Part shown: one piece after another, positions 4,666 through 6,826 of the stretch | Layout: every line of letters begins with the position of its first letter | Position numbering within the stretch: position 1 is the first letter of the stretch | Assembly (NCBI GenBank): GCA_034520945.1 | Contig: JAXHNB010000005.1 | Location: 288,001-352,000, forward strand | DNA: 64,000 bases | From: Trueperaceae bacterium | Lineage (GTDB): Bacteria > Deinococcota > Deinococci > Deinococcales > Trueperaceae | Direction of reading: 5' to 3' | Notes under the pieces: generated by a model | Database searches by the model: none | Seen by the model: the letters and a program-made list of their open reading frames with translations, nothing else | What the model was told of the DNA's origin: nothing | Translations under genes and position numbers: made by a program

Positions 4666-4741
4666 GCCACCCTAGCTCAATTGGCAGAGCATCCGACTTG
4701 TAATCGGAAGGTTGTCGGTTCGACTCCGATGGGTGGCTCCA
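4666..4741 (+). tRNA. tRNA-Thr(UGU)
   Basis: Cloverleaf GCCACCC...GGGTGGC, anticodon loop CT TGT AA, GGTTCGAC T-loop, encoded CCA. Confidence 0.96.
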
Positions 4742-4779
4742 GCACCGTGACCGAGGTCCGCGCGGCTCCGGGTTCGCCC

Positions 4780-4864
4780 GGGCAGGTGCCCGAGTGGTTA
4801 AAGGGGACGGTCTGTAAAACCGTTGGCTACGCCTTCGCTGGTTCGAATCCAGCCCTGCCCACCA
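4780..4864 (+). tRNA. tRNA-Tyr(GUA)
   Basis: GGGCAGG...CCTGCCC ACCA, loop CT GTA AA, long variable arm. Confidence 0.96.
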
Positions 4865-4927
4865 CGCTAGGAGCCGTTCCGGGGGCGCGCCTCCGGGGGT
4901 CCGGGTCCGGGGTCCGCCCCGATCCGT

Positions 4928-5003
<76 letters not shown>

Positions 5004-5047
5004 AGCATCTCCGGCTGCCGTCGGAGGTGCGCTCGGGTCCCGAGTAG

Positions 5048-5122
<75 letters not shown>

Positions 5123-5239
5123 ATCTGGATCCCAGGCCCGCGTGATCGGCACGGAGCGTCCGGCCGGTCACGCAGATGCTGCCGCCGCGCCTGACGTACG
5201 ACACCCTCCCAGGCCGGCCCCCAGGAAAGGACGATTGTC

Positions 5240-6457
5240 ATGGCGAAAGCGACGTTTGAGCGTTCGAAGCCGCATGTGAATGTGGGGACGATTGGGCATG
5301 TGGATCATGGGAAGACGACGTTGACGGCTGCGATTACGTTTGCGGCTGCGGCGGCGGATCCGTCTGCTGAGACGATGTCGTATGAGCAGATCGATAAGGC
5401 GCCGGAGGAGAAGGCGCGGGGGATTACGATTAATACGGCGCATGTGGAGTATCAGACGGGGGCGCGTCATTATTCGCATGTGGATTGTCCGGGGCATGCG
5501 GATTATGTGAAGAACATGATTACGGGGGCGGCGCAGATGGATGGTGCGGTGTTGGTGGTGTCGGCGGCGGATGGGCCGATGCCGCAGACGCGTGAGCATA
5601 TTTTGTTGGCGCGTCAGGTGGGGGTGCCGTATGTGGTGGTGTTTTTGAACAAGGTGGACATGGTGGATGATGAGGAGTTGTTGGAGTTGGTGGAGATGGA
5701 GGTGCGGGAGCTTTTGTCGAGTTATGAGTTCCCGGGGGATGATGTGCCGGTGGTGTCGGGGTCGGCGTTGAAGGCGTTGGAGGCGTTGGTGGCGAATCCG
5801 AATGTGCAGCGGGGTGAGGATTCGTGGGTGGATCAGGTTTGGTCGTTGATGGATGCGTTGGATGGGTATGTGCCGACGCCTGAGCGTGATGTGGATAAGC
5901 CGTTCTTGATGCCTGTGGAGGATGTGTTCACGATTACGGGTCGTGGGACGGTGGCGACGGGTCGTGTTGAGCGGGGTGTGGTGAAGACGGGGGATGAGGT
6001 CGAGATCGTGGGGTTGTCGGCGACGCGGAAGTCTGTGGTGACGGGTGTGGAGATGCATCGGAAGACGCTTCAGTCGGGGATGGCTGGGGATAATGTGGGG
6101 GTTTTGTTGCGGGGGGTTGCGCGTGATGAGGTGGCGCGGGGTCAGGTGTTGGCGAAGCCTGGGTCGATTACGCCGCATACGAAGTTTCGGGGGTCGGTGT
6201 ATGTGTTGCGGAAGGATGAGGGGGGTCGGCATAGTGCGTTTTTTGCGGGGTATCGGCCTCAGTTTTACTTTCGTACGACGGATGTGACGGGGGTGTGTAC
6301 GTTGCCGGGGGATGTGGAGATGGTGATGCCGGGGGATAATGTGGAGTTGTCGGTGTCGTTGATTAAGCCGATTGCGATGGAGGAGGGGTTGCGGTTTGCG
6401 ATTCGTGAGGGGGGTCGTACGGTGGGTGCGGGTGTCGTGACGGGGATCGAGGAGTAA
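5240..6457 (+). CDS. tuf: Elongation factor Tu (tufB-type locus)
   Basis: [41 protein letters not shown]; follows the Thr-Tyr-Gly-Thr tRNA block. Confidence 0.99.
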
Positions 6458-6460
6458 GCC

Positions 6461-6500
6461 CGCGCGGCGGCCGGCTTGCGAAAGGGCCGGCCGCCGCGCG
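6461..6500 (+). terminator. GC-rich hairpin after tuf (probable terminator, weak U tract)
   Basis: 15-bp stem CGCGCGGCGGCCGGC / GCCGGCCGCCGCGCG. Confidence 0.65.
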
Positions 6501-6661
6501 TTGCGCGACACCGACCGGTGCGCGCAGATGCTAGGCTCGGTAGGTTGCCCCGGCGCGGTTCGTCGCGCTGAGCCGTCCGAACCCGTGCCGAGACCCCGCG
6601 CGGGGGTCCCTGGCACGGATTCACGAACGCCCGGAACGTACGCCCCGAACGGGAGAAGATC

Positions 6662-6826
6662 ATGGCCAGTGACGTCCGAATCAAACTGCTGTTGGAGTGC
6701 ACGGAGTGCAAGCGCCGCAACTACGCTACGCACAAGAACCGGCGCAACACCACGGCGAAGCTCCAGCTCCGCAAGTTCTGTCCGTGGGACCGCAAGCACA
6801 CCCCTCATCGCGAAGTGAAGGTGTGA
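6662..6826 (+). CDS. rpmG: 50S ribosomal protein L33
   Basis: Manual translation [54 protein letters not shown]; below the ORF-track cutoff. Confidence 0.96.

Follow-up and report, generated by a model that had tools for sequence, protein, structure and literature searches.

Duplicated tuf genes written in G- and T-ending codons in a Trueperaceae bacterium: a possible footprint of NucS-filtered gene conversion

Introduction

The 64,000-nucleotide stretch of DNA analyzed here (the window) comes from a Trueperaceae bacterium (GenBank assembly GCA_034520945.1, contig JAXHNB010000005.1, positions 288,001 to 352,000 of the forward strand) and carries, at 5240..6457 on the plus strand, a tufB-type copy of tuf, the gene for elongation factor EF-Tu, in which G or T is the last base of 392 of the 405 sense codons. 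We lean toward reading this skew as the footprint of strand-specific, keto-biased (G- and T-favoring) gene conversion between two tuf copies, arising where NucS/EndoMS is the sole mismatch repair system. Below we set out the composition of the gene, its relationship to the second copy, the repair genotypes that accompany the skew in two phyla, and the alternative explanations that these data allow us to weigh.

Results

The tuf gene is spelled in G and T

The EF-Tu encoded in the window matches the Pfam domains GTP_EFTU (PF00009, 5.8e-66), PF03144 (D2, 1e-19) and PF03143 (D3, 1.4e-38). Its third codon positions are G in 279 cases, T in 113, C in 12 and A in 1; among the first 100 codons, G or T is the last base in 97. 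Leucine is written TTG 24 times, CTT twice and CTG never, a synonymous C in first position being shunned as well. Threonine is always ACG (29/29) and histidine always CAT (11/11), aspartate is GAT in 25 of 26 cases (GAC in 1), valine is GTG (48), GTT (4) or GTC (2), and alanine is GCG (33) or GCT (4). The spelling rule is G wherever the code allows it and T elsewhere. An initial annotation, made from the sequence alone, had counted the third positions by hand, together with the 22 C-ending codons among the first 40 of groEL, and our recount agrees with it exactly.

We define K3 as the share of G and T at codon position 3. Against a crude background set of 2441 open reading frames (ORFs) from this 3.47-Mb, 71% GC genome (mean K3 0.469, standard deviation 0.063), both tuf copies stand at 0.968, 7.9 standard deviations away, and the binomial tail for the window copy at p = 0.469 is 4e-109. 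The ORF ranking third, a group II intron reverse transcriptase/maturase (G000:C5:835810-837240, G000 being this genome), reaches only 0.77 (T3 0.26). No other highly expressed gene is skewed, in line with the initial annotation. The neighbors on the same strand, whose names we assigned by N-terminus with no family scan, show nothing unusual, with K3 values of 0.52 (nusG), 0.44 (rplK), 0.50 (rplA), 0.52 (rplL), 0.44 (rpoB), 0.45 (rpoC) and 0.38 (groEL), and the 160 nt 5' of tuf are C-rich with a G/T content of 0.46. This bears out the first description of a skew that runs from the ATG to the TAA.

These figures bear directly on translational codon selection, in which the spelling would be fitted to the tRNA pool, for example to the tRNA-Gly(CCC) beside the GGG-rich tuf; we consider this very improbable and close to refuted. 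A skew that is extreme, limited to the coding sequence (CDS) and conserved across species speaks for such selection. So do the T-ending four-fold codons, among which CGT and GGT are favored and commoner in the window tuf than the rest, and a set of C-ending exceptions common to a same-genus relative (AAC 92, AAC 137, GAC 140, TTC 230, TAC 343, GTC 399 and ATC 403). However, no other highly expressed gene has the same codons, and these genes lean toward C-ending ones. G34 decoding usually prefers C-ending over T-ending codons, a preference that the T-ending His, Asp, Asn, Tyr, Phe and Ile codons of tuf oppose, and the amino-acid composition of the protein is shifted as well. The gene for tRNA-Gly(CCC), the reader of GGG, is found at window positions 4928-5003, a short way upstream of tuf, which contains 29 GGG codons.

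A second copy defines the homology tract

The initial annotation expected a second tuf after fusA, near-identical, skewed in the same way and with edges at the homology boundary, and exactly such a copy lies outside the window (G000:C5:484701-485918), between fusA (K3 0.49) and rpsJ (K3 0.41), the latter starting 3 nt past the tuf stop. Window positions 5237..6460 on the plus strand correspond to G000:C5:484698-485921 over 1224 nt with 4 differences, all at third codon positions, and the two proteins are identical. Identity extends from 3 nt before the ATG to 3 nt after the stop, with unrelated flanks beyond, and the skew begins and ends with the CDS, a stretch that doubles as the homology tract. 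Because CDS and tract coincide here, the tract edges cannot separate conversion-type explanations from those that act on the mRNA or the CDS.

Occurrence in two contexts, near-identity and an identity bounded by the gene ends are what concerted evolution would leave. Furthermore, the copies differ at 0-2 positions within each of seven genomes, compared with 79-92% protein identity between genomes. Four sibling genomes of the same genus have K3 values of 0.93-0.99 at 87-92% EF-Tu protein identity; elsewhere K3 is 0.43-0.97 in other genera of the family, 0.27-0.83 in other families of the order and 0.32-0.76 in distant bacteria (80 loci, among the matches listed). A foreign origin of the gene, or an assembly artefact, is scarcely credible in this light. 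Large near-identical duplications that arouse suspicion do occur in the assembly, but both tuf copies sit in native, differing contexts, and the idea is refuted by the relatives, the four same-genus genomes and many genera being in the same state. The EF-Tu of a foreign lineage, named at the outset as a finding that would overturn the proposal, is not what we see, as the relatives share both the protein and the skew.

Conversion alone was rejected as the cause. Seven two-copy relatives with K3 from 0.27 to 0.83 all show 0-2 differences between copies, and copies that are equally identical at both ends of this range mean that, unlike conversion, the skew is not a general feature. The mechanism that the initial annotation put first, biased handling of heteroduplex in conversion, is the one favored by our tests. 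Conversion as such is insufficient, identical copies being found at K3 0.27-0.43.

The main rival is selection on the tuf mRNA, which would favor a C-poor, G/U-rich message that resists Rho and folds weakly, for maximal output of EF-Tu, the protein most abundant in the cell; we judge it unlikely. Rho needs C-rich, G-poor RNA, and Rho is present in this genome. The sense-strand C/G ratio of tuf is 0.34, compared with 0.79-0.99 in four neighbors, the predicted fold is -101 kcal/mol per 300 nt, compared with -127 to -152 (20-35% less stable than the neighbors), and the skew is limited to the CDS. Against this, low folding and low C would follow from any cause, and the ribosomal-protein genes, rpoBC and groEL are unshifted, with rpsJ normal immediately past the second tuf.

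Two relatives carry unusual tuf genes. In G018, both copies (L005 and L116) are mosaic in the same way, with K3 of about 0.6-0.8 over codons 1-225 and about 0.91-1.0 over codons 226-403. The mosaic could derive from recombination import, and a skew that is weaker in the 5' half is a further point against mRNA selection. In G005, the second tuf (L111, G005:C13:518418-519632) has gained one base (+1) near nt 778 and lost one (-1) within a run of G near nt 985. Decay of this gene into a pseudogene was considered and rejected, as its three in-frame stops arise from the +1/-1 pair in an otherwise identical copy; the pair is probably a homopolymer error.

The skew accompanies NucS as the only mismatch repair system

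G and T, the favored bases, are those whose mismatches NucS recognizes, and a dependence on NucS was predicted before the search. This genome encodes an intact NucS (match at G000:C2:304722-305039), with NucS_N and NucS_C in one ORF (L178, 156..1094). Profile searches of the genome (97% complete) found neither MutS domain I (MutS_I) nor MutL_C, although a divergent homologue may have been missed; T. thermophilus and D. radiodurans were positive with these profiles, as were 11 of 14 control genomes. The inventory of MutS, MutL and NucS suggested in the initial annotation proved to be the key step.

We surveyed 364 Deinococcota genomes for the 48-nt all-G/T spelling of the EF-Tu codons for a motif of 16 protein letters. 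The pattern was found with at most three mismatches in 52 of the 364 genomes and with at most one mismatch in 31, all of family f1. MutS_I was found in none of these 31 full-pattern genomes (base rate 248/364) and NucS_C in 30 of them (base rate 156/364), the exception being G314. Within f1, K3 was 0.68-0.99 in the nine of nine genomes where NucS was present and MutS_I was not found, and 0.37-0.73 in the 15 of 15 with MutS_I. G333, which has both NucS and MutS_I, stands at 0.73. In genus g11 neither NucS nor MutS_I was found; its tuf copies are identical and have a K3 of 0.27. Families f3 and f4 gave 16 matches, all with 2-3 mismatches, which fall for the most part on the C-ending codons CAC (His) and GAC (Asp). 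In tuf genes of this kind, which we call the Thermus type, G at four-fold sites is combined with TTG and ATT, CAC and GAC are kept, and MutS_I is present. The milder form that the initial annotation ascribed to Thermus does occur, as a G-type partial skew in Thermus-like relatives.

NucS presence alone was rejected as the determinant: Deinococcus-like genomes are NucS-positive with an ordinary tuf, and family f2 has NucS in 57 of 125 genomes, MutS_I in 121 and the pattern in none. Thermus-like genomes show their partial skew without NucS. It was this failure that led us to refine the prediction to NucS as the sole mismatch repair system, before MutS was tested. Many genera of this bacterium's family have NucS, with MutS domain I not found. 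A 2017 survey describes Deinococcus-Thermus species with both NucS and MutS-MutL, and a NucS-only clade in Deinococcota may so far be unreported.

A second survey covered 401 Actinomycetota genomes and was centered on the genome of locus L092. Its counts ignore kinship. The counts of both surveys include genomes flagged as unpublished (G337, G594, G369, G386, G416 and G450), and no conclusion hangs on any single one of these. The all-G/T pattern occurred in 25 of the 401 genomes, with two matches in 18. Fifteen of these 18 were tested (all except G490, G635 and G714), with NucS_C found in 14 and MutS_I in none. Among the first 80 pattern-negative genomes the EF-Tu motif was present in 70, and twice in 27. 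Excluding G392 and G422, whose pairs differ, this leaves 25 genomes with identical pairs, of which four have NucS, four others have MutS_I and 17 have neither. When the G/T-ending codons among 15 codons of the motif were counted by hand in the pattern-negative genomes, the four NucS-positive pairs scored 11, 10, 12 and 7, three of them nearly at the pattern, and the 21 NucS-negative pairs scored at most 8, except for the MutS_I-positive G424 with 10. The 43 single-match genomes, in which NucS_C but not MutS_I was searched, had NucS_C in 11, and it was not found in 32. Scores in the 11 ranged from 4 to 12 of 15 and were ordinary in eight; in two of the three highest-scoring genomes (G391 and G448) tuf lies at contig ends, as with collapsed duplicates. 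NucS without MutS, together with two copies, accompanies the skew, and each factor alone mostly does not. Selection on the mRNA predicts no tie to repair genotype, yet such a tie is found in two phyla.

With neither NucS_C nor MutS_I found in 17 of 25 two-copy genomes, and NucS_C not found in 32 of the 43 single-match ones, part of the sampled Actinomycetota may be without any known mismatch repair system.

The force acts on bases and a mirror-image repeat may follow the replication strand

The G/T content of codon positions 1 and 2 (without Leu, Arg and Ser) rises with K3, with a Spearman rho of 0.62 over 42 non-independent sequences. EF-Tu here contains 54 Val and 14 Ile, compared with about 45 and about 23 in low-K3 relatives, and is poorer than these in Pro, Thr, His, Gln, Asn and Lys. 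It is bases, and not codon-tRNA matching, that the force acts on. As would be expected of biased conversion, the effect is confined to the recombining tract and reaches non-synonymous sites; the actinobacterial skew fades before the tract end.

A push on codon positions 1 and 2 in the same direction would also come from transcription-linked deamination (C to U, A to hypoxanthine) on the exposed non-template strand, subsequently spread by conversion. The amino-to-keto change is the chemical signature of this process and the favored strand is indeed the non-template one. It nevertheless appears improbable. Transcription at the second tuf locus also runs through rpsJ and fusA, and both are normal; the spacer between the tRNA genes and tuf is rich in C and has diverged from species to species; and no graded effect is seen across other highly expressed genes. 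Moreover, two-copy genomes with neither NucS nor MutS_I are unskewed. The deaminase alternative offered in the initial annotation gained nothing from our analysis, which found nothing for a deaminase.

A possible second case is provided by a cytochrome c domain on the minus strand of contig C2 (G000:C2:316265-317820; L129, 1766-3321), present as three tandem repeats of 97-100% identity and fused to an oxidase-subunit-like membrane protein. The repeat period is 543 and 542 nt, which amounts to one frameshift. This repeat uses almost only C- and A-ending codons (K3 0.11), and in five NucS-only relatives the orthologues, which have one domain each, show K3 values of 0.32-0.50. Since the gene is on the minus strand and the plus strand of C2 is G-rich, the G/T-rich strand of the repeat is once more the leading-strand sequence, even though here it is the transcription template. 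Judged from its sequence, the repeat would be a mirror-image counterpart of tuf with a polarity set by replication, a reading limited by doubtful duplications in the assembly and by the frameshift. Its opposite mRNA composition speaks against mRNA selection, and its G/T-rich template strand against deamination.

The assembly also contains large duplications of 5-26 kb with 98.7-99.5% identity, several of them exact tandem, and of ordinary composition (in G000, C1:274916-315488; C2:47290-81254; C8:51707-62446; and C10:2862-28492 with C5:869904-895528). These appear to resemble artefacts of long-read assembly or of strain merging, and the contamination figure for the genome is 5.1%. In addition, three islands (G000:C5:16000-29000, C5:576000-588000 and C6:941000-968000) combine restriction-modification and mobile genes and are in parts 90-94% identical to one another. 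Within them K3 follows the strand whatever the gene direction, at 0.72-0.75 in plus-strand genes and 0.13-0.29 in minus-strand genes.

Surroundings of tuf in the window

Upstream of tuf, a plus-strand cluster at 4666..5122 comprises tRNA-Thr(TGT), tRNA-Tyr, tRNA-Gly(CCC) and tRNA-Thr(GGT), the classic tufB context. The spacer that follows (5123..5239, plus strand) is C-rich, shows no keto skew and has diverged from its counterpart in a relative of the same genus; a consensus promoter scan around tuf found no promoter in it. Directly after the stop, outside the skew, lies a strong G+C hairpin (6459..6504, plus strand; predicted -42.8 kcal/mol), which is terminator-like, lacks a T run and is not listed by the consensus terminator scan. 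An antisense open frame of 546 codons spans tuf on the minus strand (5168..6808) and is, by the logic of the code, most simply a by-product of the skew, because G or T at sense position 3 places C or A at antisense position 1, so that no stop arises.

Discussion

A detailed comparison of tuf genes, repair genotypes and repeats enabled us to propose a model for the skew. In its general form, to which we give about as much credence as doubt, sequences kept alike by conversion in NucS-only lineages are driven to G/T on the lagging-strand template, overriding codon optimization in the most strongly expressed gene and shifting the EF-Tu protein. The identity of the copies shows that they swap strands often. 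The resident single strand in the exchange would mostly be the lagging-strand template, which for tuf, co-oriented with replication, would be the sense strand, and the imported strand would be the template strand of the other copy. NucS would then destroy any heteroduplex that contains G-T, G-G or T-T and ignore the other mismatches. A change of a resident G or T to A or C would be blocked, because the imported strand always brings G or T opposite it and so creates one of these keto-keto mismatches. The reverse change, from a resident A or C to G or T, would give A-C, C-C or A-A and pass, as would G to T or T to G, through G-A or T-C. The outcome would be a one-way ratchet to sense-strand G/T wherever selection permits, with GC pressure picking G if it is coded and T otherwise. 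The plus strand of the tuf contig is the G-rich strand. Replication-strand polarity, which the initial annotation dismissed, is a required part of the favored explanation. Enzyme specificity is known from the literature, and the repair genotype, the identity of the copies and the associations are observed here; we infer which strand is resident, by what pathway the copies exchange and how strong the bias is, conversion being seen through its compositional outcome and correlates only.

The same logic may extend to the milder Thermus type. C-C is the classic mismatch that MutS recognizes poorly, and with MutS its escape would let C to G pass and block G to C, giving G at four-fold sites and leaving the C of His and Asp codons in place.

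Several published properties of mismatch repair are consistent with this model. The specificity of NucS has been published for mycobacteria and Corynebacterium. In M. smegmatis, fork-annealed oligonucleotides making G-G, G-T or T-T meet a rejection of more than 500-fold that depends on nucS, and all others are incorporated (PMC11551767). Recombination is also suppressed by NucS if the sequences are diverged, but not if they are identical (PMC5290159). In Salmonella, the rate of tufA/tufB conversion is about 2e-6 and reaches 1e-3 once mutS is mutated, mismatch repair cutting conversion 100- to 1000-fold, with the recognition efficiency of each mismatch type deciding which conversions are recovered and with conversion near the gene end (nt 1126) about 100-fold lower (PMC5485169). 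In Haloferax, deletion of nucS impairs gene conversion (PMC11276520).

A number of observations weigh against the model. Among the Deinococcota, G024 has K3 0.79 with both NucS and MutS_I, G303 has 0.72 with MutS_I and without NucS, and the Thermus-like G025, G021 and G014 reach 0.81-0.83 despite MutS_I. Among the Actinomycetota, G419 carries the pattern although NucS was not found, and G437 has NucS and two tuf copies with no skew. Outside G000, MutS was judged by domain I alone. The MutS-negative genera of f1 may form one clade and so represent a single event; likewise the Deinococcota and Actinomycetota groups may each be one clade and amount to only two independent events, in counts that take no account of kinship. 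In nine actinobacterial pattern genes (L160-L177), K3 declines across the final 30-90 codons, the very last of which end in C or A, and the copies in the same nine genomes are identical to the stop and up to 60 nt past it. A lower conversion rate near the tract end could explain this fading, or equally a 5'-weighted need of the mRNA, and a skew that is weaker near the 3' end, the region in which early termination would cost least, is a point in favor of mRNA selection. Most other repeats of G000 (repeat pairs of 88-99.9% identity) are unskewed, so that long-lasting concerted evolution, beyond mere duplication, would be required. The initial annotation went too far in supposing that repeated sequence in general is driven to G/T, and a rule like that of repeat-induced point mutation (RIP), in which every repeat is skewed, was rejected, since most repeat pairs have ordinary composition. 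Finally, the strand polarity of the exchange is an assumption, and the account of C-C escape draws on general MutS biochemistry and does not explain the TTG and ATT preference of the Thermus type.

The proposed process shares features with several known systems. GC-biased gene conversion is repair-driven and non-adaptive, and favors G and C symmetrically on both strands. The tuf case resembles it in a repair-driven allele bias in heteroduplex that is strong enough to override codon preference, but in tuf the winners are G and T, and this on a single strand, which lets T beat C. RIP of fungi is an enzymatic C-to-T change on both strands that inactivates repeats. Homology dependence and transition-type change confined to duplicated DNA are common to both; unlike RIP, the tuf case leaves genes intact, enriches a single strand in G/T, spares most other repeats and implies no deaminase. 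G-rich third positions were reportedly already noted in the 1987 papers on the Thermus thermophilus tuf sequence. The Thermus-like relatives studied here likewise have G at four-fold sites, with TTG and ATT; they keep CAC and GAC alongside MutS_I, where the present genome has T-ending codons. With the concerted evolution of enteric tufA and tufB, our case shares the tufB (tRNA-tuf) and tufA (fusA-tuf-rpsJ) positions, CDS-bounded identity and a mismatch-repair filter; in contrast, codons are ordinary and the filter is MutS there, whereas here silent C and A are nearly lost and NucS acts alone (PMC5485169). NucS/EndoMS repair offers the same G/T partition of bases and anti-recombination on diverged sequence, and NucS_N and NucS_C are both present here, but the available sections of the two reports describe a corrector of replication errors and not a lasting footprint in the composition of duplicated genes (PMC11551767, PMC5290159). 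A 2026 preprint on M. tuberculosis reports a transition bias in conversion tracts and suggests that a NucS-related asymmetry could reshape paralogue composition (PMC13061034). The passages concerned deal with antigen families, whose recent tracts are enriched in T-to-C changes, and contain no keto ratchet, strand model or tuf case.

Title, abstract and full-text searches found no published description of the G/T skew of tuf, the 1987 Thermus tuf papers lying outside the searched set. The ingredients, namely concerted evolution, biased gene conversion and NucS repair, are known, and what we propose is the keto ratchet in tuf. With the scales about level, we suggest that such a ratchet is a new strand-specific form of biased gene conversion and that tuf is a natural reporter of the mismatch-repair system.

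The gene tuf is a standard reference for "optimal" codons and a common phylogenetic marker. In the lineages described here, it appears to be DNA repair, and not translation, that sets tuf codons and part of the EF-Tu sequence; if so, expression indices, estimates of dN/dS (the ratio of non-synonymous to synonymous change) and trees would be misled in these lineages. [quoted passage not shown] The spelling of tuf would then offer a cheap genomic read-out of a lineage's repair system and of the resident strand in ectopic exchange.

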